A stretch of DNA of 64,000 nucleotides from a virus (taxonomy: Duplodnaviria; Heunggongvirae; Uroviricota; Caudoviricetes): IMG/VR virus record IMGVR_UViG_2534681834_000006, one strand, 5' to 3'. Under the pieces are notes generated by a model. That model was not told the DNA's origin. It worked only from the letters and a program-made list of their open reading frames with translations, and searched no databases. A program made the position numbers and the translations under genes. Within the stretch, counting starts at the first letter, position 1; the number at the start of each line of letters is the position of its first letter. Below are positions 43,935 to 63,959 of this stretch, in pieces.

Positions 43935-44458
43935 CGGTCAATGGGGCTATCGACTGGCTTAACCGCGCTTCTTATTTTTTCACACTTGATCCATCGCCAG
44001 ACAATATGCGGCGCGTTGGTCGTGGCCGCCGTCGCCGTGGTGTTTGTTATTGCATGGCACTACCCGATGTTAAAGAACGTGAAGTCAGAGACGGCATTCT
44101 GTGCTTCCGTCGTGTGGCTGAACGCGGCACAGAGCCAAAAAATACGAATTCTCCCGAGTGGTGGGCGTGGCGCTGGTCCGCACATTTCGGCCTTTGCGAA
44201 GATGAGAATGAAATTGCCAGCGGCAATAGTGCATATGGTGCTCTGAACCTGGCTTTCCATATCGGATTCAAACATGTAGCCCTGGTGGGCGTTGACGCTA
44301 CGCAAGAACTACGCGTTCACTCCGGCGGCACGCCAAAAAATCTAAGTCACCTGCCTTTGTTATTCCAGTCTGCGCGTGAACAGATTGACGTTGTTTCATG
44401 CGGGAAAATGGGAGGTATTCCGCAGATGACTCTTAAAGAATGGCTGAAGAATACATGA
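43832..44458 (+). CDS. Rossmann-like protein, paralog B
   Basis: VGSGPS...IIAVNG...VALVGVD motifs; start overlaps 3' end of paralog A by about 100 nt. Confidence 0.45.
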
Positions 44459-45132
44459 TGGCACCCACAATTTATCACCGTATCGACGGTACCAAATACA
44501 GGAATGTCTGGGTTGTTGGTGATCTGCATGGTTGCTACACCAGACTGATGTCCGAACTCCATCGTGTGGATTTTGACCCGGCGCAGGATTTACTGATATC
44601 GGTCGGCGACCTTATCGATCGCGGTACTGAAAATGTCGAATGTCTGGAACTATTGCAGATGCCCTGGTTCAGGGCAGTGATGGGGAACCATGAGCGGCTG
44701 ATGATTGATGCGTTAAGTCCAGATGGCAACGTGAATAACTGGCTAATGAATGGCGGACAATGGTTCTTCATGCTGGACACTGATCAGGAAATATTAGCCT
44801 GGGCGCTGGTGGAGCTGGTAAAGCGTCTGCCCTATATCATTGAGTTGAACACCGGGCAAGAAACTATCGTTATAGCCCATGCCGACTATCCGGATAATGA
44901 ATACCAATTCGGTAAGGAGGTGCCGCTTTTCAACGTTGTCTGGGCGCGCGAGCGTATCAGTGATTCGATGGATGATATTGGTGGCGAAATTTCGGGCGCA
45001 GATCGTTTTATCTTTGGTCACACTCCGGTGAAAAGCCCGAAGACATTCTGGAATCAGCAGTATATCGACACTGGTGCCGTATTTTGCGGAAACCTGACAT
45101 TGATGAAAGTGAAAGGTGATGGTGCAGCATGA
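44440..45132 (+). CDS. ppp: serine/threonine protein phosphatase (lambda-PPase-like metallophosphatase)
   Basis: GDLHGC, GDLIDRG and GNHE metallophosphatase motifs. Confidence 0.85.
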
Positions 45133-45830
45133 AGATTGCTTTAGTTTTTCGCTCTGGTGGTGACTATAACGCTTCCGATGTGCAGTGGCTGGTTAATCAA
45201 CTGCCAAAAGGCTATGAAATTATTTGCCTGACAGACCTGAAGCGTTTACATGTACCTGGCGTCAAAGTTGTCCCATTGATCAACCAGTGGCAAAAGTGCC
45301 GTGGCTGGTGGGCGAAAATCGAGTTGTTCCGACCGGATATAACAGATGATCTGTTCTATCTGGATTTGGACACAGTTATTGCCGGTGATATACGCCCAAT
45401 CCTTGAGAATCCACCAACCAGCTTCACCATGCTTAGGGATTTTTACCATCCACAATATCGTGGTAGCGGTGCCCTGTGGATACCAAATAGTGTAAAAGCG
45501 CATATCTGGAGTTCATTCTGGCAAGATCCGGAAGGTTGGATTTCTCGTTGTGTCACTACTGAGTGCTGGGGTGATCAGGGGTTCTTACGGAAGGTTATGG
45601 GCGATGATACACCAGCATTTCAGGATCTGTATCCAGGATGGTTTGTAAGTTACAAGGCCGATGTTGTGGAACCTGGTTCAAAATATGCGAGCGCGCGTTA
45701 CTCCAGGGGGAATGGGGCATTACCAAAGGACTGCCGAATAATCTTTTTCCACGGCAAACCGCGACCTCGCGAAGTGTCAGAGGATTGGCTTCCCCTTATT
45801 AGCTCGTTTTTTGAGCGAGAATCAGAATAA
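45129..45830 (+). CDS. hypothetical protein
   Basis: 233-aa ORF, start overlaps ppp stop. Confidence 0.5.
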
Positions 45831-45831
45831 T

Positions 45832-45848
45832 ATTGCTCTAATAATTCC
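45832..45848 (+). promoter_or_regulatory. C1 operator-like 17-mer
   Basis: ATTGCTCTAATAAtTcc. Confidence 0.5.
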
Positions 45849-45856
45849 ATATTTTT

Positions 45857-45889
45857 AAAACGTGATGTACACTCATCACGTTTTTTATT
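45857..45889 (+). terminator. rho-independent terminator flanked by two operator-like sites
   Basis: AAAACGTGATG-TACACT-CATCACGTTTT hairpin plus T-run. Confidence 0.7.
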
Positions 45890-45897
45890 AGAGCAAT
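45881..45897 (-). promoter_or_regulatory. C1 operator-like 17-mer (inverted)
   Basis: reverse complement reads ATTGCTCTAATAAAaaa. Confidence 0.5.
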
Positions 45898-46189
45898 CAA
45901 AAAGGTGCACTATGTGGCCATTCCGACGGAAATATCACTACTGGCTGATCGCCTTTGTTACGCCGACCGGCGGTATCAGGCATGTCATCACCAGGTATCG
46001 CAACAAGAGACTCACCTTAGCCAGAATTTTACAGGCTGCCATAGGTGAGGGACTGGATACAAATTGCGTAGTCCTTCCTCCTTCATACTTAGGAAAAATG
46101 ACCGAAGCACAAGCTAATACGGAACTTTGAAATGAGCACTTCAGCACAAAACCAATCAATCGAAAATGTATCTATCCCTGATGTCCTGA

Positions 46190-47395
46190 ATGCCGGTATC
46201 CCGGCCATTATCCAGAACATCCGGGCCGCGCAACGCCGCGTTAGTTGTGATGACCTCACAGCACGTTTTTTTTGATAATGCGGTTCAGTCAGCGGAGATG
46301 CTTCACGCACAGCTTATTGATGTTTATAACGCAGAAGCTGATAGCCATAACTCCCTGGTAGATGCAGCTGAAAATATGCAGTTGGATCTCGGTCTGAAGG
46401 GTAAAGAAATTGAAGAGCTTCAGCTGCAAATTGAACATTTGAAACGCCAGCAACAGGACGCGATCGACGATGCGACGCATGACGCCAACCAGCGTGCTGA
46501 TAATGCCGAACGTATAAGCATTGAGCTGGAAACAAAACTCAATGAAATGACCGCGATGGTTGAACTGCGGAACTCACAGATTTCAACGCTAAAATCTCAA
46601 TATAAAGAGATCATGAAACTTGATCCTTTTAACCTTGAGAAACGCTATAACAAAGCTAAAAGCGAGCGACAGGAACTGCGTAAGCAGGTCGCCGACCTTA
46701 ACCAACAGCTCAAAAAAACTATTAAAGATGCAAGCGAAGCGCGCGTGGCATTTGCTAATAAAAAAGCAGAGGTTACCGCGCTGGTTAATGAGAATGCCAA
46801 ATTTGCGACGCTCAAGAAGGAAATGTATGGCATTACTGAGCGCCGTTTCCCTGCAAGCAAACTTCATCCGACGTTAGGGCAAATCTCCTTCTTCCCGCGC
46901 CTCCTGGCTTATGGGATCTCATCGCCTAAAGAGTTCAATAACGAGCGTCCTTATATCGTTTCTAAGCTGGACTTTGCTTATCAGTTCTGCTGCGACATGG
47001 GCTATGCCATTGATATCCGAATCAACGAATGGTTGATGCCAAACTTCCAGCCGTTGGCAATTTTCCGCGAGTTCCAGCCGGAAGGTTGGGTAGAGTTCTT
47101 CCATGAATTGATCTGTAAAGAGATGGAAAGCCGCCGCCCGGAACTGGTCCGTCGAGTTGAGTGGGCGCAAGAGGTTATGTTAGCAGATGCAGAGCTGCCG
47201 TTCGAACCGGAATTCATTGATGATCTGGCAACTAAAGGGCTGCATACCCTGTTTGATGTGGTTACCCGCCGTCATGAGCAGTTGGTTGTCGAATTGGGTT
47301 TAGAGGAAACTGCGGCAAGAAGACTTCTCGATGTTTGCTATGCACGTAGCGATGCATGGGAAAAAGAGAACGGCGGCACTATTTACGTTCGCTGA
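46190..47395 (+). CDS. coiled-coil protein
   Basis: ORF of up to 401 aa; N-terminal half predicted coiled coil; start uncertain (ATG near 46295). Confidence 0.5.
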   Translation: MPVSRPLSRTSGPRNAALVVMTSQHVFFDNAVQSAEMLHAQLIDVYNAEADSHNSLVDAAENMQLDLGLKGKEIEELQLQIEHLKRQQQDAIDDATHDANQRADNAERISIELETKLNEMTAMVELRNSQISTLKSQYKEIMKLDPFNLEKRYNKAKSERQELRKQVADLNQQLKKTIKDASEARVAFANKKAEVTALVNENAKFATLKKEMYGITERRFPASKLHPTLGQISFFPRLLAYGISSPKEFNNERPYIVSKLDFAYQFCCDMGYAIDIRINEWLMPNFQPLAIFREFQPEGWVEFFHELICKEMESRRPELVRRVEWAQEVMLADAELPFEPEFIDDLATKGLHTLFDVVTRRHEQLVVELGLEETAARRLLDVCYARSDAWEKENGGTIYVR

Positions 47396-47417
47396 TAGTT
47401 ACAGTGTCACTTTTAAT

Positions 47418-47448
47418 GCTGGTGGAGTGCTCCCACCAGCATTTTTTT
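47418..47448 (+). terminator. rho-independent terminator
   Basis: GCTGGTGG-AGTGCT-CCCACCAGC followed by ATTTTTTT. Confidence 0.7.
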
Positions 47449-47467
47449 CGTCCAATGAGGAGGGCAT

Positions 47468-47974
47468 TTGAGTATTTTCAATAAACACGCACACCAGGAA
47501 CGTCCGTACATCGTCATAGTAGATATTGATGGGACGATATCAGAGGCAACGGAAGACAGGCTGCATTTACTTCCACCACCTGGCAAAGGTGCATTAACAG
47601 AGCACTGGAACGAGTTTAACCTTGCCTGTGACACTGATGCTCCCATCACTCCAGTTATTGATATGGTGCGCCAGTTGTCCGGCATTTACACCCTCTGGTT
47701 TGTAACCGGGCGCTGTGAGATAGCCAGGGATAAAACACGAGCCTGGTTGCGTAAGCACGTAACAAATGGGGCTGAGCCTTTGCTATCTATGCGTCCTGCC
47801 ACCGATGACAGAAATGACGGTCCAGCAAAGATTGATCTCCTGAAGAAAATTGGTCTAAGTAAAATTGCGTTCGCGCTGGAAGATAAGATTGAAGTGGCGC
47901 GTGTTTTCAGGAGTCACGGCGTACTTACGTTAATGGTCAGGGAGTATGAAAACGCGCTTCTCCATCAACAATAA
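47468..47974 (+). CDS. HAD-superfamily phosphatase-like protein
   Basis: 168 aa; N-terminal DIDGT motif (DxDGT). Confidence 0.6.
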   Translation: MSIFNKHAHQERPYIVIVDIDGTISEATEDRLHLLPPPGKGALTEHWNEFNLACDTDAPITPVIDMVRQLSGIYTLWFVTGRCEIARDKTRAWLRKHVTNGAEPLLSMRPATDDRNDGPAKIDLLKKIGLSKIAFALEDKIEVARVFRSHGVLTLMVREYENALLHQQ

Positions 47975-47990
47975 TTGCTCTAATAAGTCT
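47974..47990 (+). promoter_or_regulatory. C1 operator-like 17-mer
   Basis: ATTGCTCTAATAAgTcT. Confidence 0.5.
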
Positions 47991-48238
47991 TGATTTTTAA
48001 AACAGAGAAAGTGAAAATAAAAACATGCCGCAAGGCGCGGCATGTATCCAATCAATCACAGGAGCTGAAAATATGAACACGGCATTCAAAATCATTATGG
48101 CCGCGATCTATTTCTGGCTGTTCTCTATCATTTTTGGCGGCATCGTTGCGCATGGGTAAGGGGAGTATATTAGCCATTTGGAACCCCACGGTCTCTTGCG
48201 GGTTTAATTAAGAACCCGCAAGAAAAACACGAATTGGG

Positions 48239-51200
48239 CTATATTTTTCCGCCTACGCCTTTAAACTTCTCAATAAACGAGACGATTTTCTGGAAAACTG
48301 CCTGTTTTTTCGTTTTATATTGCGGATTCAACGGACTAAGTTTTGGTAATGTTTCGTTTAATTCTGTGCCATTTTCGGTGGCGTATTCGCGTTTTAAAGA
48401 CGTGCGAATATAGCGTTTTGCTGCTTCTTCATTGAGGTTTTCTTCTTTTATCAATGCTTCTGCTTCACGTTGCTGTTCGCGTTGAGCAAACGTAAAGAAT
48501 GCCTCAATGATACTGGCTTTGTCTGGTAAATCATCCAGGTTCGTTTGCTGAATAAAATCGACCACCAGGCCCTCTTTCGCCCGGTTTCCCAGGCTTGAAC
48601 GAATTAAGCGTTTGACCTCTTCGATCATTTCGCCCTTGCCTTTATTTTGTCTGTTGTGTTCGAAAATCAGTCCAAGGATATAATCCAGGTTTATTTCCTG
48701 AGACTTCAGCAAATCGACCTCAAAAACTACATCATCCCAGTCAGTGGTTGATTTCTCTTTTTTCTCAGCTTCTTTCTCACGGCGCTGCCAGTCGCGAATA
48801 TCGTTATAGGCAGAACGATAATCCTGAATCTTGCGATCAGCAGGGAGACGAATTGTTTGCAATTCAGCGAACTTTTCATCATCCACATAATGTTCTGCTT
48901 TGAATTTTTCTACCGCAACAGGATCGCTAAGATCGATTTGTTGCAGGGCTTTTAGCGTGGCAAATTCATCATAGTTTTGCAGGATGTTCTCGGCACGCAG
49001 GTATTCGCCAAACAGTTTAACGAAGTCTTTCTTCTCTTTTTCACTTTCAATACTGGTAGGGTCAGGGAACCGTTGTTCCAGTTCTGAAACTACTGTCATG
49101 AAGCCGCGTTTAGCTTCACCAGTGGCAGCATCAGTAAAGCCTTCCATATACTCTGCATAACTCTTTTCTAAAACCACATTTTTGGTATTTTTGTCACCAA
49201 ACAGCGTTATGGCATCAATGGTTGAGCGTTCCAGATCCCGGAACGTGACGATATTACCGAAGGTTTTAGTCGCGTCATAAATGCGGTTGGTGCGGGAGAA
49301 TGCCTGCATCAGGCCGTGAAAACGCAAGTTTTTATCGACGAATAGCGTGTTCAATGTTGGAGCGTCGAAGCCGGTTAAAAACATCCCAACGACAATTAAC
49401 AGATCGATATCCTGATTTTTAACCCGTTGGGCTAAATCACGATAGTAGTTCTGAAAACCGTTACTGTCGGTACTGAAGTTAGTTTTAAAATAGCTGTTAT
49501 ATTCACGAATTGCAGCGTCGAGAAACTCTTTAGCACTGCTGTCCATTGCGCTGGTATCAAAAGTTTCATCGGAAATTTCACCAATGGCATTTTGTTCTTC
49601 ATTAGCGGCAAAGGAGAAGATTGTCGCAACACGTAGTGGTTTATAGGTAGCAGATTTATAAGCGGCTTCCTCTTGTAACCGTTTAAACGTCGCGTAATAG
49701 GCTTTCGCGGCATCCACGCTGCTCACTGCCAGCATGGCATTAAAACCTTTGGAGCCAGGGAAAGTACGGTGGGTTTTCTGGCGGAAGTTATTCAGGATAT
49801 ATTGCGTAATTTCCTGAATACGCATGGGATGAAGGAACGCCTGCTGATTTTCAGCCGCACTCAGTTTTTTCTCGTCAGTTTCTGTCTCTAAAGACTTAAA
49901 CTGTGGCCGCACATCGTTGTAGTCCACCTTGAATTTAAGCACTTTTTCATCACGAATCGCATCGGTAATAACATATGAATGCAATTCACGGCCAAATACG
50001 CTGGCGGTCGTTTCTGAGCCTAAGGCGTTTTCCGGGAAAATAGGTGTGCCGGTAAAACCAAACTGATAATAGCGTTTGAATTTCTTCTTCAGGTTTTTCT
50101 GTGCTTCTCCAAACTGGCTGCGGTGACATTCATCAAATATAAACACCACTTGCTGATTGTATACAGGCAGGTCGCTTTCTGCTTTCATCAGGTTATTAAG
50201 TTTCTGAATAGTGGTGACGATAATTTTGTTATCGTCCTTATCCAGATTTCGTTTAAGACCTGCGGTATTTTCCGAGCCGTTGACGCTGTCTGGCGAAAAA
50301 CGCTGATATTCCTTCATGGTCTGGTAATCGAGGTCTTTCCTGTCGACCACAAAGAAAACTTTATCAATAAAGTCCAGTTCTGTTGCCAGACGCGCGGCTT
50401 TAAAGCTGGTCAGGGTTTTACCGGAACCCGTGGTGTGCCAGATATACCCACCGCTTTCCGGTTTTGACCAGTTCTTCGCTGTAAAGGAGCTCTTAATTTT
50501 CCACAGAATGCGCTCGGTGGCGGCAATCTGGTACGGTCGCATCACCAGTAGCGTCTGACTACTGTCAAAAACGCTGTAGTTCACCAGAACATTCAGCAGA
50601 GTATGTTTCTGGAAAAAGGTAGCGGTAAAATCTTTGAGGTCTTTAATCAGCGTGTTGTCTGATTTCGCCCAGTTCATGGTGAAGTCAAAACTATTTTTAT
50701 CGCGCTTTGTGGTGTTGGCAAAGTAACGGGTATCGGTGCCGTTAGAAATGACAAACAGTTGCAGATACTTAAACAGGGAATTTTCGCTGTTAAAACTCTC
50801 TTTACTGTAACGATGTATCTGGTTGAAAGCCTCACGAATCGCCACGCCGCGCTTTTTCAGTTCGATTTGCACCAGAGGCAAGCCATTAACCAGGATAGTT
50901 ACGTCATAACGGTTAGCGTGAGAACCTGCCTGTTCAAACTGCTGGATAATCTGCACTTTGTTGCGCATGAGATTCTTTTTATCTATCAGATAGATGTTCT
51001 CAAGACGCCCGTCGTCAAAAATAAAGTCGCAAATATAGTCGATATGGATTTTACGGGTCTTATCCAGAATGCCATCGCTCGGGTTGTCCAGATACTGCTC
51101 CGTGAAACGCCGCCACTCGCTGTCATTAAACACCACACCATTGAGGCTCTGAAGCTGTTCCCGAACATTGGACAGCATAGCCGACTGAGATTTTACGGAT

Positions 51201-51415
51201 ATAAATTCATAGCCCTGATTCCGCAGGTCCTGAATCAGTTCACGTTCCAGGTCCGATTCGCTCTGGTAGCTGTCGCCTGTTGGCTCAGCTTTGATGTACT
51301 TATCAAGGACGATAAAGTTATTGGATTCAGCAATAGTGTGTGTCTGATGAGTCATAGCGCATCCTTTGTGCCGTCTGGCAAGGGCCGGAAGGGAGTTAAG
51401 GGTGACTTCCGGCAC
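48239..51415 (-). CDS. hsdR: type I restriction endonuclease subunit HsdR
   Basis: 1058 aa; helicase motif I HTTGSGKT and motif [11 protein letters not shown]. Confidence 0.9.
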
Positions 51416-51476
51416 GTAAAAAATAGTCTATATACAGACCGGATGTTAAGGTGGTCCGGTCGGTAGCAATGGTCAA

Positions 51477-52733
51477 TTAATTACTGACAGTTTCAGGTTT
51501 CGGGAAACTGAACAGTAAGTCACGATAGTACTCGTATTGTTTCTGGCGCAACTCGATTTCACGCGGGAGACCTTCGGTGATGGAGTTGGTCAGGGTGTCG
51601 AATTTATCGAGCAGAGCAGATATTCGCTCTTGTTTCTGTTTATCAGGCAATGGCACTGGTAATGTTTTTATAATATCTGCATTCAAGTTACTGACCGACC
51701 CGCTATTGATTTTACTTTCCCAATAATTTTTCACCTTTTTTGATGAAAGATAGTGATACAGATAATCAGCATTTAATTTTTCACCAAAATTGCTGATTGA
51801 TGCCCATCCATCATGGATAGCTCCGGTTATCCTTAAAATATATGGTCTGCCAAAGCTCATAGAGTTAGAAATGACGAAATCACCGGGGTTCAAGATTCGC
51901 GATTTTTGGGCACCCTCTGCAGTTATTTTTTGTAAGGTTTTGTCAATGTATTTAGAGCCGGGGATAGTATCTCCGATTTTAATCCATGGGATACCATTTC
52001 CTTGTTCAGTAAGATAATTAACAATTGGCCTGGGGGATGCCCCACGTTGTATTTTGGCTACTTCTCCCAATGCCTTCCACTCAACCTCACCCTCTTTAAA
52101 ACTCAGCAACTGGTCGCGATAGTAGTTGTACTGTTTTTTACGCATGTTAAGCTCAGCGGTAAGCTCAGCGGTAAGTGCAGTAAATTTGTCCAGAATCCGA
52201 ACGATTTCAGACTGGATGGCGAGGGATTTTTCCGGATTATCCGGGCAGGGAATTGGGATGAGTAGTTTTGACATCAATGCATTTGAGCTTAGATTCGGTT
52301 GTGCTCCGCCCCCGGCGAGGATATAAATAGTCTCTGTATTTAACAATAAAAAATGGTATAAATAATTATTGTTTAGAATATTTTCTTTGGGTATGAATTT
52401 TCCAACCCGTTGGTTAAGATAACATTTTGTTCCTTTTTTATAAATTCCCACTTTTCCTGTAGTGGCACCTGACATTGCAATCAATATATTTCCCATAGAT
52501 ACCTCAAAGGAGGATAAATCTTCCTTGTAATCATTTAGTGAAAAGTATTTCACCTCATCTAAGTCAACATTAAATCCATCTATATTTGTGATTCTAACTA
52601 TCGGTAACCCAGTTTCTTTAAATAAGCTGCTTTTAAATGCAAATCCATTTTTAAAATCACAAACATCCTTCAAGGGTTTCCACTCAACCTCAACCCCATC
52701 CAGCAATTTTTCCAGATAACTCAACTCGCTCAT
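51477..52733 (-). CDS. hsdS: type I restriction-modification specificity subunit HsdS
   Basis: 418 aa; two target-recognition-domain halves; 4-nt overlap with hsdM. Confidence 0.85.
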
Positions 52734-54286
52734 TTCTGCACCTCGCAGCCTTCAATTTCAGCCACAATCGCATCAATATCTTTACGCAACTGGTCGATTT
52801 TGCTGACCGTGATTTTCAGCTCTGCATTCAACTCAGCGATATCGATAATTTCGCGAGTATCTTTCGCTTCAACATAGCTGCTCACCGACAGGTTATAGTC
52901 ATTAGCAACAACGGTCTCAAACGCGACTGATTTCGCCAGATGAGCAACATCTTCCTTGCTGGCAAATACCTGCATAATCTGTTCGATATGGGCATCGGTC
53001 AGGATATTGTTGTTGGTCTCTTTTTTGAATAGTTCGCTGGCGTCAATAAACTGAACTTTTGTATCTGTTTTATGTTTAGACAACACCAGAATGTTTACGG
53101 CAATGGTGGTGCCAAAGAACAGGTTCGGTGCCAGTGAAATCACGGTTTCGACATAGTTATTATCAACCAGATACTGACGGATTTTCTGCTCCGCGCCGCC
53201 ACGGTAAAAAATACCCGGGAAGCAAACAATCGCAGCACGACCTTTGGCAGAAAGATAGTTCAGCGCATGTAGTACAAAGGCGAAGTCAGCTTTTGATTTG
53301 GGGGCCAGAACGCCAGCCGGGGCAAAACGTTCATCGTTAATCAGCGTCGGGTCATCGCTGCCAATCCATTTCACCGAATACGGCGGGTTAGAAACGATGG
53401 CATCAAACGGTTTTTCATCTCTGAAGTGTGGTTCAGTCAGCGTATTGCCCAGCTTGATATCAAACTTGTCGTAGTTGATGTTGTGCAAAAACATGTTCAT
53501 ACGCGCCAGGTTATAGGTCGTATGGTTGATTTCCTGACCAAAAAAACCTTCTTCGATGATATGGTCATCAAACTGTTTTTTAGCCTGCAACAACAGCGAA
53601 CCGGAGCCTGCTGCCGGGTCGTAGATTTTGTTAACGTGGGTCTGCCCGTGCATAGCCAGTTGTGCAATCAGCTTAGAGACGTGCTGCGGTGTAAAGAACT
53701 CGCCGCCGGACTTACCGGCATTCGCGGCATAGTTAGAAATCAGGAACTCATAGGCGTCACCGAACAGATCAATCTGATGTTCGGTGAAGTCACCAAGTTT
53801 TAACCCTTCAACCCCTTTCAGAACCGCAGCCAGGCGGGCATTTTTATCTTTAACGGTGTTACCCAGGCGGTTACTGGTGGTATCGAAATCAGCAAACAAA
53901 CCTTTGATGTCTGCTTCTGAAGGGTAGCCGTAAGCAGAACTTTCGATAGCAACGAAGATACTGTTTAAATCTGCATTCAGTCTGTCATTGGTATTTGCTT
54001 TCGCAGCTACGTTGCAGAAAAGCTGGCTTGGGTAGATGAAGTAGCCTTTGGTTTTGATGGCATCGTCTTTAATGTCATCAGTAATTACGCTGTCATCCAG
54101 TGCTGCATAACAGATGCTGTCATCATCGGCTTCCATATAGCTGGAAAAATTTTCGCTGATAAAACGATAAAAAAGCGCGCCCAGAACGTACTGCTTAAAA
54201 TCCCATCCATCGACTGAACCCCTGACATCGTTAGCAATTTGCCAGATCTGGCGATGAAGTTCTGCACGTTGTTGAATACTTGTCAT
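52730..54286 (-). CDS. hsdM: type I N6-adenine DNA methyltransferase subunit HsdM
   Basis: 518 aa; AdoMet motif [10 protein letters not shown] and catalytic NPPY. Confidence 0.9.
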
Positions 54287-55418
54287 TTTCTTCCACTTAT
54301 TTCAGGCTTAAGTAATTGGCGGTGATTCTACAGCAACTTTGATGCTTTAGCAGTTCGGACATTAGGCAACGAATGACCTAATTAGAGCTTTTTGGAAAAG
54401 CGGTATTGTCGGTGCGATGATAGCTATGTTTGGGTTCGCGATGGTGCAATACAATGACGGTGAAAAGGTAAGCATCCAGTCTGATGGCTGGTATGGGCTG
54501 GATAGCCTGCAAAAAACCGCAGATAAAGCCTGTCAGCAATATGGAAAGTCTAAAGCCGTATATCAGCATAGCGCGAACGCTAATCCACATCTCGCGCCCG
54601 GCACGGGCGTTCAGAACACTATTTGGAAATGCGAACCATAACGCAGGTTGGCTTTTTACATCTTGGGCCGAATACTGATTCCGCGCTAAGTTGTTTGTGC
54701 GGAAGTGACACTGTGGAGCTTAGAAATAGTAAATACTGGTGGGCAACAAATTGAGCCTTCACACGCTCACCAGCACACACAAAAAATGGTTAAACAGCAA
54801 GGGAATTAATATCTCAGCGCGACATTAAATAAGCCAGCGCACGCCTCTGTTTATCACTGACTTGAAAAACCATATCAGAACCACGATGAAGACAATCGCC
54901 AGCACTTGGCTAAGAACAGGCGCATTTAAAAATGCACTTAGAAACTGAAAAAATACAATCATCAGGGTAATCCTCGTCAAATGTAAAGCTGTGTGCTCTC
55001 ACGTTGACGTAGAAACCCAACCTCTATATAGTTGGATTCGGTGAAAGAAAGTCGTTAACGTGAACTTACGGCACATGTTTTCGGTATAAAAATCAGGGAA
55101 CTGTGAATTCCTTGATGTAGTTGGGGCCTGTAATGCAGGCCCTATCTATTAATGTCATGATTACATCTCAAATTTTCTCCTTATCATTATTATTTAATAA
55201 AATTCAATTAATAAAATATCCATTTCCTGTGTGTGCAAACACAGTATGAGGAAAATGGCCTCGTTGCAAGTGCATAACTTTGTGGATAACTCTGAAGGCG
55301 AATTTACATTTCGGCGCACCGCAAGCCAGATAAGCTGTGCGCAAAAAGCAATGGGGTGAGAAAAAAACTTTGAAGATATTGCGGCGACTAAATAATAGCC
55401 GTTATTCAATTATTCTGG

Positions 55419-55670
55419 ATGGGATTTAATATGAACGAATGGAACATAGCAGCCAAAAGCCAGGAAGAAAGGAATAAAGTTAACGTTGACCTGGCTGCCA
55501 GGGGGGTTGCCTACAAAGAGCGATTGAACATACCTGTCATAGCTGAACAGGTAGCCCGCGAGCAACCAGAGAATCTGCGCACCTATTTCATGGAACGTCT
55601 ACGGCACTACCGGCAGTTAAGCCTCCAGTTGCCAAAAGGGAACGATCCGGCATATCAGAAAACAGAATAG
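55419..55670 (+). CDS. hot: DNA polymerase III theta-subunit homolog
   Basis: 83 aa; KVNVDLAA(R/A)GVA(Y/F)KERxNxPVIAE...REQPE aligns with E. coli HolE. Confidence 0.8.
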
Positions 55671-55681
55671 TTGTTAGGCTA

Positions 55682-56044
55682 TTACGCAATGCCCGCGCCA
55701 TTCATAGCGGGTTTTAAGCCATATTCACCGTTGTAGAAATTACTCATGTTCCATTCATTGGGAAGCTCTTTTCTGTCCAATGTATAGTGGCGTACGATAT
55801 AACGATCTTCATCTTCTTCGATGGACAGGCGGACATAGCCAATGTGAATTACCGATACGGGCGGCGTCCGTATTGCATAGATGTCGCGGAGATATACCGG
55901 TAGCTCGACAAATGCGTCAGGTGCATCTGTGATGCTCATTTTTTCACAGTATTCATATAACGCATCGTTGATATCGTTAAGAGATTCATGATCGTATATT
56001 TCCAGGTAATTACCGCGATCGCGATGGTACTCGATTTTAGCCAT
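55682..56044 (-). CDS. hypothetical protein
   Basis: 120-aa ORF, second gene of divergent operon next to LexA box. Confidence 0.5.
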   Translation of the reverse strand: MAKIEYHRDRGNYLEIYDHESLNDINDALYEYCEKMSITDAPDAFVELPVYLRDIYAIRTPPVSVIHIGYVRLSIEEDEDRYIVRHYTLDRKELPNEWNMSNFYNGEYGLKPAMNGAGIA

Positions 56045-56629
56045 TCAAAATCCCCTGTTATCGTTTTGCATTTCTCTAATCCGGTTCAGAACTACTTCAT
56101 GCTGGGCTTGGATAGCGGCTTTTTCGTTTTCAAGTCGGGCAATAGACATCTCTAATTCTTTGCTGTACCAGGCGAGTTGGGCCAGGTTCATCCGGTTGTG
56201 GTCGAGAGTTGGAGACACTTCGACGCGATCCCTTTCTTCCTGCTTTAATGAGAAGAGATTCATCTCATCCCTAGAGGAAAATTCAGCAACAATTTCTTGT
56301 TGATGATCCGGTCGCTGCGGCATCCTCGCCAGTATAAATGGCGGTTCTTTTGAAAACATGAATGTCGGTTCATAACGTGTTTTTACCCAGCTTGCCTGCT
56401 GTCTTTCGGCAAGTTCACAGGCTTCATCATAGTTATTTGCCAAACCAAGCACGGATGGACGGTCCCACGCCCCACCATTCAGACAATAAACTACAATTTT
56501 CCCGTCAGGTTGTGTAACCCCATATGGATGGTCCCACCAGGCGTCCAACTGAGCTTTAGAGCGTTTCTCGTTAGGAGTGCAGTCAAAATTTTTGGGCAAT
56601 ACAGGATCGAGAGGAATGCGGGCAGGCAT
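56045..56629 (-). CDS. hypothetical protein (probably LexA-regulated)
   Basis: 194-aa ORF; C-terminal coiled coil; promoter region contains LexA box. Confidence 0.5.
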   Translation of the reverse strand: MPARIPLDPVLPKNFDCTPNEKRSKAQLDAWWDHPYGVTQPDGKIVVYCLNGGAWDRPSVLGLANNYDEACELAERQQASWVKTRYEPTFMFSKEPPFILARMPQRPDHQQEIVAEFSSRDEMNLFSLKQEERDRVEVSPTLDHNRMNLAQLAWYSKELEMSIARLENEKAAIQAQHEVVLNRIREMQNDNRGF

Positions 56630-56766
56630 AGCTAATTCCTTATTAACTGATTGGCAACGAGGTTACGCTGATCCGTTGGTGATGAATAGTAGCAAAGCGC
56701 ACAAAATCATCTGCGGTGGTTGATGTACATAACGCGTTTGCACCAAAGGTGTCTCTTTAATGTATG

Positions 56767-56782
56767 CTGTATAAATGAACAG
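56767..56782. promoter_or_regulatory. LexA box (SOS operator) between divergent genes
   Basis: CTGTATAAATGAACAG = CTGT-N8-ACAG. Confidence 0.75.
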
Positions 56783-56803
56783 TATTATTGAGGTGAAAAC
56801 GCT

Positions 56804-57193
56804 ATGGGCTTCCCTTCTCCTGCGGCGGATTATGTTGAAAGCAGAATTTCTCTTGATCAGCAACTAATCAGGCATCCATCAGCGACCTACTTCATGCGGG
56901 CGGCAGACAGCCATCACCGCGAGGGAATATTGCAGGGTGCTTTGCTGGTGGTTGATTCTTCGCTTACTCCAGTTGATGGTTCGCTGCTTGTGTGCGCTAT
57001 GGAGGGTGAATATCGCATAAAGAGATACCGAAAGTATCCGCGCCAGCACCTGGAGGATTTAAGCACCGGGAAGAAAGAGGCGTTACCAGTAGATGACGAT
57101 GGTTACACGGGCAGTAATGCTGTTTTTGGTGTGATCACTCATGTCATCAATGATGCCCGAAGTGGGGAATTTGATGATTGTCCGGTTATTTAA
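56804..57193 (+). CDS. humD: UmuD-like protein (S24 peptidase C-terminal domain)
   Basis: 129 aa; UmuD'-like core; LexA box upstream. Confidence 0.8.
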   Translation: MGFPSPAADYVESRISLDQQLIRHPSATYFMRAADSHHREGILQGALLVVDSSLTPVDGSLLVCAMEGEYRIKRYRKYPRQHLEDLSTGKKEALPVDDDGYTGSNAVFGVITHVINDARSGEFDDCPVI

Positions 57194-57265
57194 GCTGCAA
57201 AGTGCTGGTGCTTTATGCCTGTGAAGTTTATAATTGTGTACACATAACGAGTACACGAGGTGTTT

Positions 57266-57487
57266 ATGCAATCCATTAACTTCCGTACCGCGCGCGGCAA
57301 CCTTTCTGAAGTGCTCAACAATGTTGAAGCCGGGGAAGAGGTTGAAATCACCCGCAGAGGCCGTGAGCCAGCAGTAATTGTCAGCAAGGCTACTTTTGAA
57401 GCCTACAAAAAAGCGGCGCTGGATGCTGAATTTGCATCCCTGTTTGACACCCTGGACTCCACCAACAAGGAACTGGTTAACCGATAA
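57266..57487 (+). CDS. phd: antitoxin Phd
   Basis: [73 protein letters not shown]; stop overlaps doc start (ATAATGA). Confidence 0.9.
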
Positions 57488-57867
57488 TGAGGCATATATC
57501 ACCGGAAGAACTTATTGCGCTTCATGATGCGAATATAAACCGCTACGGCGGCTTGCCGGGAATGTCAGATCCGGGTAGGGCAGAGGCCATTATCGGGAGA
57601 GTTCAGGCCAGAGTTGCCTACGAAGAGATCACCGACCTTTTCGAAGTCTCCGCCACCTACCTGGTGGCTACAGCGAGAGGGCATATATTCAATGATGCCA
57701 ATAAGCGTACCGCGCTAAACAGTGCGCTGTTATTTCTACGCCGTAACGGGGTGCAGGTATTTGATTCACCTGAACTGGCAGACCTTACCGTAGGGGCTGC
57801 GACCGGAGAGATATCTGTATCTTCTGTCGCCGACACGTTACGTAGATTGTATGGTTCCGCGGAGTAG
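57487..57867 (+). CDS. doc: toxin Doc (Fic-fold kinase)
   Basis: 126 aa with [11 protein letters not shown] Fic-like motif. Confidence 0.9.
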
Positions 57868-58051
57868 ATTAATGGCACGTAAATACAACAAATTGTCCCG
57901 TGAAGCGTTAAAGATGCTTCTTGATGGCGTGAGTCGCCGCGAGGTAAAGCAATACCTGGTTGGTAAGCAAATTGGTGCCAGGACCGCTATTGCTGTGTTA
58001 TGCCGTCAGGAAATGGTTGTGCTTAAACAGAGAATGCCGGGCAGCAGATAA
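57851..58051 (+). CDS. small hypothetical protein
   Basis: 66-aa ORF overlapping doc end. Confidence 0.4.
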
Positions 58052-58078
58052 AGCCCAATCAGTGATTAAAGGTGTGAT

Positions 58079-59122
58079 GTGAAAGCCGTAATTACTCCAT
58101 TTGTACAGAAAGAGCTTGGCCTCGCCACGTTCAAAGTGGACCAGGAGGTCAGAAAGCTGGTGGAGGCTGGCCGTAAATTTATTATGGAGCCGGTGCCGCG
58201 TGAGTTAATCGAGCACATGGACGACGGCCTCGTTGTTTCCGAGCAAACTATGGCAACAAATGAGGCGTTGCAGCCGTTTTTTAACAGCGATGAACTGTTT
58301 CGCCGTATTGGTGGAATTGACTCGCTGGTGGCGTGGTTGCGCAGGAAAGAGGGGCAATGCCAGGCCGCAGATCGTAGTTGGTGTGACAACCATATTGTCC
58401 ACGCTGAACGAGACAATAGCGCGGTGTTGTTGTGCTGGCATCACGATAACCATTACCGGATGCGTGGTTTTAATGAGCTGAAAGAAACGCTGCATAATAA
58501 TCGCGTTAACTGGATACTGGATGTCGCCCGTCAGGAAATGGGGCTTTCAGATGGCCATGATTTAAGTATTCAGGAACTGTGCTGGTGGGCTTTCATGCGC
58601 AACATGATGCACCTGATGCCGGAAGAAGTCTGCCGCATATCAATAAATAAGATGAAGGCTACTCCGCAGGATAGCGGACCTCTGAAAGAGGCGGATATTC
58701 GCCCGTATGACGATCGCGCTATAGCATATGTTCAGATGATGGAAGAACGCGCCGCGCCGATGCGTGCAAAAGTATGTCCTGTGGATGTTGACTCCGACCC
58801 AGGTATGGCGCATTTCAAAATACCAAAACTTCAATCGCTAAAATTACCTGAGTACATGGACTTTGTTGCTTCCCGTCCATGCTGTGGCTGTGGAGCTGCG
58901 GGAGCTGGCGCTCACATTACGCCTTATATCGTTCGTCATAGTCGATTATGCGCGCATGACATTTATGCTATTCCTCTGTGCCAGTCATGCCAGCGTGATA
59001 TTGAGCGTGACCGCGATAATTGGGAGAAAACACACGGTAGGCTGGCGATGCATCAACGATTGTTCTTTGATTACGCGCTTGGAGTCGGCGCTATCACAAG
59101 TCACTCGTCGAGCGTTAGATAA
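58079..59122 (+). CDS. hypothetical protein with Cys-rich C-terminus
   Basis: 347-aa ORF (non-ATG start in track); [12 protein letters not shown]...CQSCQRD cluster. Confidence 0.5.
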
Positions 59123-59123
59123 A

Positions 59124-59140
59124 ATTGCTCTAATGTATTG
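59124..59140 (+). promoter_or_regulatory. C1 operator-like 17-mer upstream of lpa
   Basis: ATTGCTCTAATgtATTg. Confidence 0.5.
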
Positions 59141-59210
59141 CTATTTATTTAATCGAGGGTATTATATTCCACGTTGATTAGTTGACATGGGCTAATCAGT
59201 AGGTGACAGG

Positions 59211-59663
59211 ATGTTACTTAACTGGCAGGGACGCCACTTCATGGAAATAAATCACTCACGAATAACATCGTACGAGATTGCGGATTACATGATCCGCACT
59301 AAATCTCTTCTATCAGCGAAAGAACTCGCAGCAATTCTTGAAAAGGAATACCCGCATCTGGATGTCGATAAGCGCGATGTTTATCTGCGCTTAAAGGCTA
59401 TCGCTGTGTCTAAGTATTCGTCTGTTTTGATTGATGACAGTACACGCCCACGTAGATTTCAGATCCACTCTCTGAATCCTGAATTCTTTCGCCGTAGCCG
59501 CGCTCCGCGCCGGTTTGATGAAAAACTCCAGAACGAACTCTATATGACGCAGGACGAAAAGGAACGCCGGGAGCACCAGCCTTGGGTAATGGCGCGTCAA
59601 CTTTTCAATAAGGTGGCCCGTCAGCACCGTCATTACGGTAATGCCACATCCGCACGTATCTGA
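59211..59663 (+). CDS. lpa: late promoter activator
   Basis: 150-aa ORF between an operator and pacA, as in P1. Confidence 0.65.
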   Translation: MLLNWQGRHFMEINHSRITSYEIADYMIRTKSLLSAKELAAILEKEYPHLDVDKRDVYLRLKAIAVSKYSSVLIDDSTRPRRFQIHSLNPEFFRRSRAPRRFDEKLQNELYMTQDEKERREHQPWVMARQLFNKVARQHRHYGNATSARI

Positions 59664-59748
59664 TTGATTGCTTGCCCGTTCCGGGCCTTTTGACATGTGA
59701 CTTTCGTTACCCTCGCGTCAAAAAGAGTTTTTACGAAAGGAAGCATAA

Positions 59749-60942
59749 GTGACCTGGGACGATCACAAAAAGAATTTTGCTCGCCTGGCGCGAGATGGTG
59801 GTTACACCATCGCACAGTATGCCGCCGAGTTTAATCTTAACCCTAATACCGCACGTCGTTATCTCCGTGCCTTCAAAGAAGACACCAGGACTGCGGACAG
59901 CCGCAAGCCAAATAAGCCAGTCAGGAAGCCACTAAAAAGCATGATCATTGATCACTCTAATGATCAACATGCAGGTGATCATATTGCGGCTGAAATAGCG
60001 GAAAAACAGAGAGTTAATGCCGTTGTCAGTGCCGCAGTCGAGAATGCGAAGCGCCAAAATAAGCGCATAAATGATCGTTCAGATGATCATGACGTGATCA
60101 CCCGCGCCCGCCGGACCTTACGTGATCGCCTGGAACGCGACACCCTGGATGATGATGGTGAACGCTTTGAATTCGAAGCTGGCGATTACCTGATAGATAA
60201 CGTTGAAGCGCGGAAGGCCGCGCGCGCTATGTTGCGTCGGTCCGGGGCTGATGTTCTGGAAACCACTCTTCTGGAAAAGTCTCTCTCTCATCTCCTTATG
60301 CTGGAGAACGCCAGGGATACGTGTATTCGCCTGGTGCAGGAAATTCGCGATCAGCAAAAAGACGATGATGAAGGAACTCCGCCTGAATACCGTATCGCGA
60401 GCATGCTAAACAGCTGTTCCGCGCAGATAAGCAGTCTGATCAACACCATTTACAGCATCCGGAATAACTATCGAAAAGAAAGCCGGGAGGCGGAAAAGCA
60501 CGCTTTATCTATGGGGCAAGCTGGCATTGTTAAGCTGGCATACGAACGAAAGCGTGAAAATAACTGGTCAGTGCTGGAAGCAGCTGAATTCATCGAGGCG
60601 CATGGCGGGAAAGTGCCGCCCCTGATGCTGGAGCAAATCAAAGCCGATCTGCGTGCTCCTAAGACCAATACCGATGATGAGGAAAGGCAAACAGCCGTCG
60701 GTGGCCCTTCTCTTGAAGATCTGGACAAAGTTGCGCGAGAACGGGCCGCCAACCGCCGCGCCGATGCCGCATTGTGGATTGAGCAGCGTAGGGAAGAAAT
60801 CGCCGATATCGTTGATACAGGCGGTTATGGAGATGTTGATACTGAAGGTGTATCAAACGACCCATGGCTGGAACAAGACCTGGACGAAGACGAGGAGGAA
60901 GACGAAGAAGTTACCCGCAAGCTATACGGGGATGATGATTAA
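59749..60942 (+). CDS. pacA: terminase small subunit PacA
   Basis: 397-aa ORF containing the GATC-hexamer pac site; followed by overlapping pacB. Confidence 0.85.
59941..60128 (+). promoter_or_regulatory. pac: pac packaging site: two clusters of TGATC(A/G) hexamers inside pacA
   Basis: TGATCA at 59941, 59948, 59960 and 59975; TGATC(G/A) at 60072, 60084, 60095 and 60123. Confidence 0.8.
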
Positions 60943-62426
60943 TGGCCAGAAGTTGCGTAACGGATCCACGTTGGCGCGAGCTGGTGGCGCTATATCGTTA
61001 TGACTGGATTGCTGCCGCTGATGTTTTGTTCGGCAAAACACCTACCTGGCAGCAGGATCTGATTATTGAGTCTGTGCAGGAACAGGGTAGCAAGACATCT
61101 GTTTCGTCTGGTCACGGTACCGGGAAATCAGACATGACTTCTATCATGATCATGTTGTTCATAATCATGTATCCCGGTGCCCGCGCCATTATCGTTGCGA
61201 ACAAAATTCAGCAGGTAATGACCGGTATATTCAAGTACATCAAGATAAACTGGGCTACTGCCACCAGCCGTTTTCCATGGCTTGCTGATTATTTTGTTCT
61301 GACAGAAACCGCTTTCTATGAGGTTACTGGTAAAGGTGTATGGACTGTAGTACCGAAGGGCTTTCGTCTGGGAAGTGAAGAAGCTCTCGCCGGTGAACAC
61401 GCAGATCATCTTCTGTATATTATCGATGAAGCCTCCGGTGTCAGTGATAGAGCTTTCGGTATCATCACCGGTGCTCTTACCGGACAGGATAACCGCATCT
61501 TATTACTGTCACAGCCTACACGCCCAAGCGGCTATTTCTACGATACTCACCATAAACTGGCCAAGCGTCCTGGTAACCCAGATGGCGTTTATACGGCGAT
61601 CACGCTTAACAGTGAGGAATCACCGCTGGTAACGCCAGAATTTATCAAAATGAAGCTGGCGGAGTACGGCGGGCGTGATAACCCTATGTACATGATTAAG
61701 GTGCGTGGCCTATTCCCTAAATCACAGGACGGCTTCCTTCTTGGACGTGATGAGGTTGAACGTGCAACGCGGCGGAAAGTTAAGATTGCCAAAGGATGGG
61801 GCTGGCTTGCATGTGTGGACGTTGCTGGTGGTACGGGACGGGATAAGTCAGTTATCAATATCATGATGGTGTCCGGCCAGCGAAATAAACGCCGTGTAAT
61901 CAACTATCGAATGCTGGAATACACAGACGTTACAGAAACGCAGCTTGCCGCCAAAATTTTCGCAGAATGTAATCCTGAGCGATTCCCAAATATCACCATA
62001 GCGATAGACGGCGATGGCCTGGGTAAAGCAACGGCGGATCTGATGTACGAGTATTATGGTATTACCGTACAGCGTATACGCTGGGGTAAAAAGATGCATA
62101 GCCGTGAAGATAAGAGCCTGTACTTTGATAAGCGTGCTTATGCCAACGTTCAAGCCGCAGAGGCCGTAAAATCAGGTCGTATGAGACTGGATAAGGGTAA
62201 TGAAACTATTGAGGAAGCGTCGAAAATCCCTGTAGGGATTAACTCCGCAGGTCAATGGAAGGTGATGAGTAAGGAGGATATGAAGAAAAAACTCAACCTG
62301 CACTCACCAGACCATTGGGATACATATTGTTTCGCTATGCTGGCGGATTATGTTCCCCAGGATGAAGTGCTTAGCGTCGAAGACGAAGCGCAGGTTGATG
62401 AAGCTCTGGCATGGCTTAATGAATAA
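60942..62426 (+). CDS. pacB: terminase large subunit PacB
   Basis: 494-aa ORF overlapping pacA stop; terminase-like ATPase region. Confidence 0.85.
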
Positions 62427-62476
62427 CTCATTGACCATGCCGGATAGAAACTATTGCGCGCTTTCGGGGTTGTCGT

Positions 62477-63301
62477 TTACTGGCTGCCCCTTCTTAGTTT
62501 TACGGCTGCGCGTAACTGATGCGGCTGATTTGACCTTTTTCTCTTCGCGAGTGATGGCAATTTGTTTTTTACATTTTCAATATCTGCCAGGCGATATATT
62601 TTTGCCTGCGGCCAGCGGTCGCAGATGATCGGTTCTATAGAGTCATAAAGGCTAAATTTTGCTTTCTCGAATTCACCGTTGATGATGATTCCATCACGGA
62701 GAGTTTCATCGCAGATAAACACACCACACAGCGGCACATGGTAACTAACTGATTTACCATCATTGTAGTTAGGGCTACTGGAAATGTAATGGACGCGCAG
62801 CATTGTTTCGCTAAAGCCGTGTACACGCATACGGAATTTTTCATCCTCCGGGTACTGCTTCATTAGCTCTTTTGTTGCTTCCAGGTTCTCTATGTATTTC
62901 GCACTGTGCTCATTGATCCCCGCGCTTTTCTGGATGCGAATGTCCTTATCAATCAGATGAATAATGCGGCCAGCGGTCATGTTGACGCTGTTCACAGCTT
63001 CTGTCTGATAAGTTGTAACCTTACGCACACCGCGAAGGATGTTAGGCACTGGATATAAAATAGTCTTTGGGATATTGAGGTCTGGGTACTGTTCCAGTTC
63101 CCGCGCCATTAAAGTCCATTTATCAATTTCAGCCTGAATGCTGTCAGTTTCTTTGAACGGCAGAACGACAACCGGGCGTACAGGACGACCGTCGCTGGCG
63201 GCATCAACGTGTTGGGCGCGTGCAACAGCTTTTTTTAGAAAGAGATCCCTGAAGCTGACGAACTCCTGGTACAGTTGTTCGCCGTAGACATAATTTATCA
63301 T
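62477..63301 (-). CDS. c1: primary immunity repressor C1
   Basis: 274 aa starting MINYVYGEQLYQEFVSFRDLFLKKAVARAQ; convergent with pacB; preceded by coi. Confidence 0.85.
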   Translation of the reverse strand: MINYVYGEQLYQEFVSFRDLFLKKAVARAQHVDAASDGRPVRPVVVLPFKETDSIQAEIDKWTLMARELEQYPDLNIPKTILYPVPNILRGVRKVTTYQTEAVNSVNMTAGRIIHLIDKDIRIQKSAGINEHSAKYIENLEATKELMKQYPEDEKFRMRVHGFSETMLRVHYISSSPNYNDGKSVSYHVPLCGVFICDETLRDGIIINGEFEKAKFSLYDSIEPIICDRWPQAKIYRLADIENVKNKLPSLAKRKRSNQPHQLRAAVKLRRGSQ

Positions 63302-63411
63302 TGATCCTCCTCCAGAATTGACATGGCCAACAACTCACAGCGGATTACACTGGGAGTTGTTGGCCACCATTATAGAAGGATCCAACGAAAATAATAGATT
63401 TATTAGTGCAT

Positions 63412-63621
63412 TTATTGTGAGTCTGGCTGGTTAGTGGCCATGAGATATTCGATTGTGTCAGTGAGATCATCCAGGTCGTCTTGGGTGATGCGGTACTCCT
63501 GATTGGATATCTTTGAGTAGTGTTCAGCAATGGCGCGGGCAGCGTCGGTTTCGGCGGGGTCTACAGATAAAGCGTTAGAGCAATGTCTAACGTCGTCGAT
63601 GGTTGGTGGAATGAAAGCCAT
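63412..63621 (-). CDS. coi: C1 inactivator Coi
   Basis: 69-aa ORF upstream of c1. Confidence 0.75.
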   Translation of the reverse strand: MAFIPPTIDDVRHCSNALSVDPAETDAARAIAEHYSKISNQEYRITQDDLDDLTDTIEYLMATNQPDSQ

Positions 63622-63859
63622 AATTATGCCTCACTGTATTGACAACACAGAGCCTGAAGCTCTGACCTACTGTTTCACCCATGATCCATGCTGGGGTAAT
63701 CTAACAACATTGCGCTGTGTGTAAGATGAGCAATGCATAGCTGTAATGCCGTTGTATAAGGTTTCCCTGTTTGCTCATTTCCTTCTGAGCCGCTCTACAA
63801 CGCTGAAGACACATTAAATAGTGAATCCAAAGTCGTATTACGAAACGGCGGCAAAACTA

Positions 63860-63876
63860 TAATTTATTAGAGCAAT
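63860..63876 (-). promoter_or_regulatory. C1 operator-like 17-mer (Op99 region)
   Basis: reverse complement reads ATTGCTCTAATAAATTa. Confidence 0.65.
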
Positions 63877-63942
63877 TGTCAAACAACTATGAAAAACAAT
63901 CCAGTTTTTGGCTGGTGGAGTGGGATTTTTCTCTCAAAATTT

Positions 63943-63959
63943 ATTGCTCTAATAATTCT
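63943..63959 (+). promoter_or_regulatory. C1 operator-like 17-mer (Op99 region)
   Basis: ATTGCTCTAATAAtTcT. Confidence 0.55.

Follow-up and report, generated by a model that had tools for sequence, protein, structure and literature searches.

A predicted type IC restriction-modification system of the EcoR124 family, carried as accessory cargo in the pap-phd region of a P1-like plasmid prophage

The hsd locus of the virus record IMGVR_UViG_2534681834_000006 (IMG/VR, Caudoviricetes) raises the question of what kind of restriction-modification (R-M) system it encodes, whether that system can be expected to work, and how it came to lie in this genome. The window, that is, the whole stretch of 64,000 nucleotides that was analysed, is a P1-like (Punavirus) genome of the plasmid prophage type, in which hsdM, hsdS and hsdR appear as three minus-strand open reading frames (ORFs) arranged head to tail between pap (47468-47974) and hot (55419-55670). 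Judging from the sequence and from its characterised relatives, the block is very probably a functional type IC R-M system of the EcoR124 family, carried as accessory cargo of the plasmid prophage, with a predicted specificity other than that of EcoR124.

The genes follow the order hsdM-hsdS-hsdR. The first of them, hsdM (52730-54286, minus strand), encodes the N6-adenine methyltransferase subunit of 518 amino acids (aa), and its stop codon overlaps the start of hsdS by 4 nt (ATGA). The hsdS gene (51477-52733, minus strand; 418 aa) was characterised by alignment to the EcoR124 HsdS chain 7bst_A, by two Methylase_S stretches and by the modules of 120 homologues. After a gap of 121 bp comes hsdR (48239-51355, minus strand), which encodes the restriction and translocase subunit of 1038 aa with a PD-(D/E)xK nuclease, a superfamily 2 motor and an EcoR124_C domain. 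The M-S-R order with a separate hsdR promoter is typical of type IC systems, and the gap between hsdS and hsdR holds a weak sigma-70-like site, TTAACA-18-TATTTT (51420-51449, minus strand), as a candidate for such a promoter. In the sequence as given, none of the three genes has a frameshift or an internal stop, and PADLOC assigns to them the methyltransferase, specificity and restriction endonuclease subunits of a type I system. A preliminary description of this DNA had claimed a complete hsdM-hsdS-hsdR set, intact and with its catalytic motifs, including NPPY in HsdM, helicase motifs in HsdR and two target recognition domains (TRDs) in HsdS; Pfam, NCBIfam, PADLOC and the positions of the motifs agree with it, and the two Methylase_S stretches together with the alignment to EcoR124 HsdS bear out the TRDs.

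The listed hsdR ORF (48239-51415) begins at an upstream GTG, but the true initiation codon is the ATG at 51355, and the protein read from it has the length of EcoR124I HsdR. The match to EcoR124I HsdR (PDB 2w00) runs from end to end over 1038 aa with 2288 bits and ~99% identity. We counted 11 substitutions, none within the nuclease or helicase motifs; the eleventh, D977E, lies past about residue 968, where the residue-by-residue comparison ends, and is provisional. Pfam recognises HSDR_N, SWI2_SNF2/ResIII, T1R_D3 and EcoR124_C (PF12008, E = 1.5e-71, residues 748-1051), and the NCBIfam hsdR model gives 767 bits (cut-off 285). The nuclease region reads RYDVT(149)...QIELK(163) with QxxxY at about residue 178, and the motor motifs are TGSGKT at 309 and DECH at 408. 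HsdM differs from the EcoR124 HsdM chain 7bst_D at 8 of its 518 residues (~98.5% identity), matches N6_Mtase (PF02384, E = 2.5e-121) and HsdM_N in Pfam and the NCBIfam hsdM model with 646 bits (cut-off 243), and carries the motifs of gamma-class N6-adenine methyltransferases, DPAAGSG for AdoMet at residue 223 and the catalytic NPPY at 300.

Type I R-M systems are sorted into families according to complementation, cross-hybridisation, cross-reaction of antibodies and sequence (PMC3874165). By sequence, the near-identity of HsdR and HsdM, joined to an HsdS scaffold with two TAEL repeats, places the system in type IC. Compared with the prototypes EcoR124I and EcoR124II of plasmid R124 (PDB 2w00, 7bst), the window shares HsdR at ~99%, HsdM at ~98.5% and the gene order, and, with EcoR124I, the conserved regions of HsdS, the two TAEL repeats and the P1-derived DNA found downstream of R124 hsdR. 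The two differ in their carriers, a conjugative plasmid for EcoR124 and a P1-like prophage plasmid here, and in the TRDs, which in the window are unrelated to the EcoR124I readers of GAA and RTCG. The plasmid-borne EcoDXXI (TCA N7 RTTC), compared by description, is also type IC, and its P1 flank ends at the same left junction (P1 84482 in the P1 annotation); it has three TAEL repeats against two in the window (PMC3874165), and it joins the phd region (P1 87969) upstream of hsdM, whereas the window has hot-lxr-humD between hsdM and phd.

The specificity subunit is where the window departs from EcoR124I. The N-terminal, central and C-terminal conserved regions of HsdS are identical to those of EcoR124I or one residue apart. 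Between them lie two full-length TRDs, placed by alignment to 7bst_A, TRD1 at about aa 20-150 (52284-52676, minus strand) and TRD2 at about aa 220-355 (51669-52076, minus strand), and the helical spacers are conserved. Both TRDs diverge from those of EcoR124I, with few identical residues aligned, so the recognition sequence must differ from that of EcoR124I (GAA N6 RTCG); in the comparison with that enzyme, only the conserved regions align well. A 12-bp unit, ACCGCTGAGCTT, stands twice in tandem at 52149-52172 (minus strand) and encodes TAELTAEL (aa 188-195), the determinant of spacer length in type IC HsdS proteins. The number of TAEL copies fixes the spacing of the half-sites in this family: EcoR124I has two copies and a 7-nt interval between adenines, and EcoR124II, EcoDXXI and EcoprrI have three copies and an interval of 8 nt (PMC3874165). 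From the two repeats we therefore infer for the window allele a 7-nt spacing of the methylated adenines, usually written as an N5-N6 spacer.

Assigning the half-sites themselves by transfer from the PDB, with each TRD searched alone, was rejected, as the matches outside the EcoR124 conserved segments were weak and distant; they include an M. jannaschii S subunit of unknown specificity and TRD1 of EcoKI (E ~6e-5). The best 120 HsdS homologues all bear only the label 'restriction endonuclease subunit S', and the methylome literature on EcoR124-type systems of E. coli plasmids yielded nothing relevant. The description of the HsdS specificity as unknown thus stands as far as the half-sites are concerned, which cannot be assigned from the solved S subunits, but the protein itself is a common RefSeq entry: an identical HsdS (WP_001293041.1) is present on 91 contigs and a near-identical protein on 21 more. 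The full hsdS allele is found in 3 records among 5,426 complete E. coli genomes: ETEC1731 (100%) and two records of AW1.7 (98.4% nucleotide identity). The phage vB_EcoM-673R5 was considered as a further carrier of the allele and rejected; its HsdS also has 418 aa, but the TRDs are only 22-28% identical.

Among the 120 homologues, each TRD is paired with many different partner TRDs. Shuffling of TRD modules is known for the family (Gubler et al., 1992, as cited in PMC12707154). In five of the homologues (P0058, P0078, P0079, P0104 and P0108), the N-terminal half of the window HsdS sits C-terminally, after a different first TRD; the moved segment comprises 13 aa, TRD1 and 26 aa and is 88-100% identical to that of the window. 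The presence of this half in either position indicates that whole half-subunits move between positions in natural type IC S genes.

How the system would act can be stated by analogy with EcoR124I, for which the mechanism and the restriction alleviation of type IC enzymes have been described (PMC3874165, PMC12707154). HsdM and HsdS, expressed from their own promoter, would form an M2S1 methyltransferase whose HsdS subunit recognises, with its two TRDs, an asymmetric target in two parts, to be methylated at N6 of adenine on both strands. HsdR, expressed from its own promoter, would join in two steps (R1, then R2), and at an unmodified target the R2 complex would pull DNA through with hydrolysis of ATP and cut at a distance. 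In a lysogen, the system would cut phage and plasmid DNA that enters without the modification and mark the DNA of host, prophage and progeny, and entry into a new host would be tolerated through the assembly-limited, ClpXP-independent restriction alleviation of type IC enzymes. Its probable role would then be the defence of the lysogen and the marking of progeny DNA, and possibly stabilisation of the plasmid. The block itself lies in the known pap-phd variable region, in place of pmgT-pmgV.

Where does the block begin and end? The preliminary description had it bounded by a C1 operator-like site at about 47974, and the operator is real, although the true left edge lies further on. The 17-bp site ATTGCTCTAATAAGTCT (47974-47990, plus strand), identified by alignment to P1 with its annotation and by an operator scan, is a homologue of the P1 C1 repressor operator OpmgT/Op88, with two mismatches from the consensus and one from P1 Op88. 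It overlaps the predicted sigma-70 promoters P2pmgT/P1pmgT (~47975-48018), which point rightward at the 3' end of hsdR. When up to 3 mismatches to the 17-bp consensus of the C1 operator are allowed, the window has 13 matching sites, where chance alone would give 0.27, which argues that the layout of the P1 C1 regulon is conserved across it; matches lie, for instance, at 31569-31585, 45832-45848, 45881-45897 and 63860-63876. Next follow an intrinsic-terminator-like hairpin with a T-run found by a terminator scan (48023-48045, minus strand), oriented for leftward transcripts such as read-through from hsdR, and an ORF for a hydrophobic peptide of 28 aa, MNTAFKIIMAAIYFWLFSIIFGGIVAHG (48073-48159, plus strand), with a strong AGGAG ribosome-binding site. 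Lying downstream of the C1-controlled PpmgT promoters, this ORF is the last element common to P1 before the block. P1, whose annotation omits it, phi456 and pRHB34-C14_2 all conserve the ORF, and it has no match in Pfam, NCBIfam or PHROG. In the alignment, homology to P1 stops at 48164/48165, where P1 enters pmgT and the window enters the 3' end of hsdR. This junction corresponds to P1 84482, the exact end of the segment (84263-84482, spanning the 28-aa ORF) that the P1 annotation gives as 96-98% identical to the DNA downstream of EcoDXXI and R124/3 hsdR.

The hairpin, located between Op88 and the small ORF in the flank that is homologous to P1, is conserved in P1, phi456 and pRHB34-C14_2. P1 retains it although it has no leftward gene there, and in P1 the hairpin may be a relic of an ancestor that carried hsd. 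The hsdR transcripts of the window would terminate at this hairpin, having first crossed the small ORF in antisense. It is the only canonical terminator near the 3' end of hsdR and serves leftward transcripts, with no canonical rightward one between the Op88 promoters and hsdR, where a further hairpin lies at 48190-48222; C1-repressed promoters thus run rightward into the 3' end of hsdR in a convergent layout. On induction, loss of C1 might send antisense transcription through the 28-aa ORF into hsdR and reduce restriction during lytic growth. We regard this as quite unlikely; if true, an R-M system carried as cargo would have its activity linked to the lysis-lysogeny switch of the phage.

At the other end, the claim that an AT-rich region before hot bounds the block holds for the AT-rich stretch but not for the border, which lies at ~54387, about 1 kb before hot. 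In the phages phi456 and vB_EcoM-673R5, the shared block runs to ~54387-54391 and is followed directly by the sequence from window position 57184, the end of humD, upstream of phd; this is the EcoDXXI-type junction (87969 in the P1 annotation). The hsdM upstream leader (54287-54387, minus strand), the presumed promoter region, is the final part of the block that is common to this hsdM-phd type of junction. From the breaks of homology against P1, phi456 and 673R5, the block thus measures ~6.2 kb (48165-54387). Homology to P1 resumes at 54768, just past P1 pmgV, with ~82% identity by BLAST against the P1 locus; taken with the left break at 48164, this means that, relative to P1, the block replaces pmgT-pmgU-pmgV. 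Reference P1 has pmgT-V at this site; many P1-like plasmids have hsd there. The genes are cargo outside the core, at a site that varies among P1-like genomes, as the preliminary description had proposed, and their HsdS differs from those of characterised enzymes. To speak of a late-gene region is loose, as the neighbours comprise C1-operator-controlled pmg and pap genes besides the late-promoter gene hot.

In P1-like plasmids, the region from pmgT to humD is recognised as variable region 8 (PMC9603915); pSvP1 has been described as having a type I R-M system there in place of pmg genes (PMC6906374). Counted in PLSDB by megablast with at least 80% of each query covered, pap is present in 590 plasmids and the pap-hsdR junction in 258, such that ~44% of the pap-bearing plasmids have hsd at the pap site, and the type IC block is among the commonest fillings of variable region 8. 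The hsdM-phd junction is found in 661 plasmids, many of them conjugative or mobilizable, and the hsdM-phrog_7757-hot junction of the window in 18. The pap-proximal junction is shared, with 95-97% DNA identity, by pSvP1/pR15_MCR-1 (PMC6906374), phi456, vB_EcoM-673R5, pRHB34-C14_2 and the AW1.7 plasmid. Unlike the window, most P1-like type IC blocks join hsdM straight to phd (661 vs 18), and the TRDs of 673R5 and pRHB34 are 20-30% identical to those of the window. Enterobacterial type IC hsd loci are flanked by P1 DNA (Tyndall et al., 1997, as cited in PMC12707154); at the window locus, the P1-homologous flanks are the P1 genome itself, in keeping with that pattern.

The preliminary description had also reasoned that, as P1 encodes its type III system elsewhere, the block reflects an exchange of defence cargo. 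The type III EcoP1I (res-mod of P1) resembles the block in being an R-M system that a P1-type prophage carries in one of its variable regions (PMC9603915); it is an enzyme of another type at another locus, next to mat (P1 3.5-9.7 kb), which lies outside the window. P1-type res is present in 108 PLSDB plasmids, against 590 with pap, which leaves most P1-like plasmids without it, and res and the pap-linked hsd block occur together in at least two, NZ_CP073986.1 and CP142560.1. A strict exchange of type I for type III was accordingly rejected; the placing of res-mod at another variable locus holds, and the different loci with their co-occurrence indicate that the two systems are independent cargo and not alternatives at one site. 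The closest complete relative, NZ_CP122822.1, has no res/mod next to mat. In the mat-adjacent part of that plasmid (1-21000) are a 103-aa ORF, Icd-like, KilAC antirepressor-like and helix-turn-helix genes and a DUF3944 gene, followed by a large 'N-6 DNA methylase' (P1 darB-like).

Several observations weigh against a functional system. The plasmid NZ_CP122822.1 (ETEC1731) is 100% identical over 47000-56000, but IS1203 splits its hsdR; in phi456, an insertion sequence (IS) transposase, mis-annotated as 'baseplate hub', lies in hsdS; and in vB_EcoM-673R5, hsdR and hsdM are called in pieces. Such IS-hit and fragmented hsd genes in relatives suggest that the system is dispensable and often broken. 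The HsdM start lies two codons later than that of EcoR124 HsdM, and a sigma-70 promoter scan returned 16 sites against 15.1 expected by chance, with no hsd promoter mapped. Outside the block, the reading frame of pmgS (46132-47395, plus strand) shifts by +1 within a T-run some 48 codons from its start: frame 0 ends in ...TARFF and two stops, frame +1 goes on ...FFDNAVQ as in P1, and the ORF finder consequently lists only 46190-47395. Either this putative head-morphogenesis gene is truly damaged or the homopolymer was misread in sequencing. The pmgS of NZ_CP122822.1 is annotated as 'frameshifted'. A block that is intact yet restriction-negative, active in modification only or silent, with HsdR poorly expressed or assembled and the genes kept as an epigenetic marker or as decaying baggage, would agree with the IS insertions in hsdR or hsdS of close relatives, where selection for restriction is evidently not strict, with the missing of a convincing hsdR promoter in the sigma-70 scan, and with the cleavage-incompetent R1 complex through which type IC enzymes pass (PMC12707154). 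We nevertheless consider it improbable, since the catalytic motifs of HsdR are all intact, its 11 substitutions are counted against an enzyme of proven activity, and the 3.1-kb hsdR ORF is unbroken here, while broken copies are easily found elsewhere.

As to how a presumably functional type IC block reached this place, the spread of P1 segments by recombination is the simplest account. The ends of the block are sharp and reproducible across contexts, and its carriers include chromosomes as well as P1-like, conjugative and mobilizable plasmids, as might be expected of a discrete mobile cassette, transposon- or integron-like, inserting by its own machinery. Such a cassette seems very improbable to us, more so than the restriction-negative block: by ORF list and Pfam, the block contains no transposase or integrase ORF; its ends show no direct repeats or flanking duplication and no terminal inverted repeats (15/40 matches at best, as a raw count); and where plasmids other than P1 carry the block, parts of the P1 flanks accompany it, which indicates recombination of a larger P1 segment and not precise excision. 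It is conceivable, with a clearly better but still minor chance, that the block was not acquired recently but has long been one of the alleles of the pap-phd variable region among P1 and its kin, from which both the pmgT-V of P1 and the hsdM-phd cassette, including the EcoDXXI and R124 carriers, are derived, the window form being near-ancestral. P1 keeps the flank found downstream of EcoDXXI and R124/3 hsdR, with its leftward hairpin and without a leftward gene; in both junction types the block ends within a few nucleotides; one deletion of 2.8 kb (54388-57183) turns the window form into the common hsdM-phd form; and the share of pap-bearing plasmids with hsd at the site is large, as given above. 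Set against this are the rarity of the window form (18 vs 661 plasmids) and the GC content of the block (0.41-0.45, against 0.47-0.49 in the flanks), as expected of foreign DNA; moreover, recombination within hsd and its flanks shuffles the contexts, and from two junctions the direction of change is unreadable. As one such deletion would suffice, the window form that keeps hot-lxr-humD may be closer to the ancestral layout; it would then preserve the state before the deletion, from which the hsdM-phd cassette arose and later passed to conjugative plasmids.

Past the end of the block, the window has, in order, the phrog_7757 ORF, an AT-rich stretch like upfM-upfO, hot, an extra ORF of 120 aa, lxr and humD. 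The phrog_7757 ORF (54417-54641, plus strand; 74 aa; PHROG E = 3e-54), of unknown function, abuts the right edge of the block. A homologue is annotated 14 codons longer (pPK5074-69kb; NZ_CP072804.1), such that the junction, together with a 1-nt deletion, may have removed the 5' end of the window ORF and with it the N-terminus. Copies with 88% identity lie in this variable region, upstream of hot or lxr, in P1-like plasmids without an adjacent hsdM (NZ_CP077708.1, NZ_CP072804.1). The AT-rich stretch (54768-55418, plus strand), recognised by BLAST, the P1 annotation and the GC profile (0.38-0.39 at 54750-55500), is homologous (~82%) to P1 upfM-upfN-upfO with the late promoter LPhot. On the strand opposite to the upfM-upfO annotations of P1 runs a very hydrophobic ORF of 45 aa, MIVFFQFLSAFLNAPVLSQVLAIVFIVVLIWFFKSVINRGVRWLI (54829-54966, minus strand), preceded closely by a promoter-like site (54987-54958). 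Pfam has no match for this ORF, which may encode a small membrane toxin or may have arisen by chance. The backbone gene hot (plus strand), outside the system, encodes a homologue of the DNA polymerase III theta subunit (Pfam DNA_pol3_theta, E = 2.6e-32). Inserted between hot and lxr is the 120-aa ORF (55682-56044, minus strand; phrog_5797, unknown function), and reference P1 has nothing that corresponds to the 400 bp at 55662-56061. A scan of 44000-64000 with Rfam gave no family at threshold.

The hsd block of this prophage is thus a known kind of system at a known place, with proteins that are already in public databases, and the link of type IC hsd to P1 is also written into the P1 reference annotation; the only slightly unusual feature is the rare junction that retains hot-lxr-humD. 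The main value of the analysis lies in the correct annotation of the block, and the current understanding is unchanged by it. A practical interest attaches to the recognition sequence of the HsdS allele WP_001293041.1. In a lysogen of this phage, an additional bipartite N6-methyladenine motif is to be expected, together with a barrier against phage and plasmid DNA that lacks the modification; the DNA in progeny or transducing particles would bear it too. For the family, the locus offers a genome-scale illustration of the old inference that the P1 lineage is the home of type IC hsd loci and the source of their spread, with the pap-phd region as a hotspot where the exchange of TRDs shuffles hsdS alleles.

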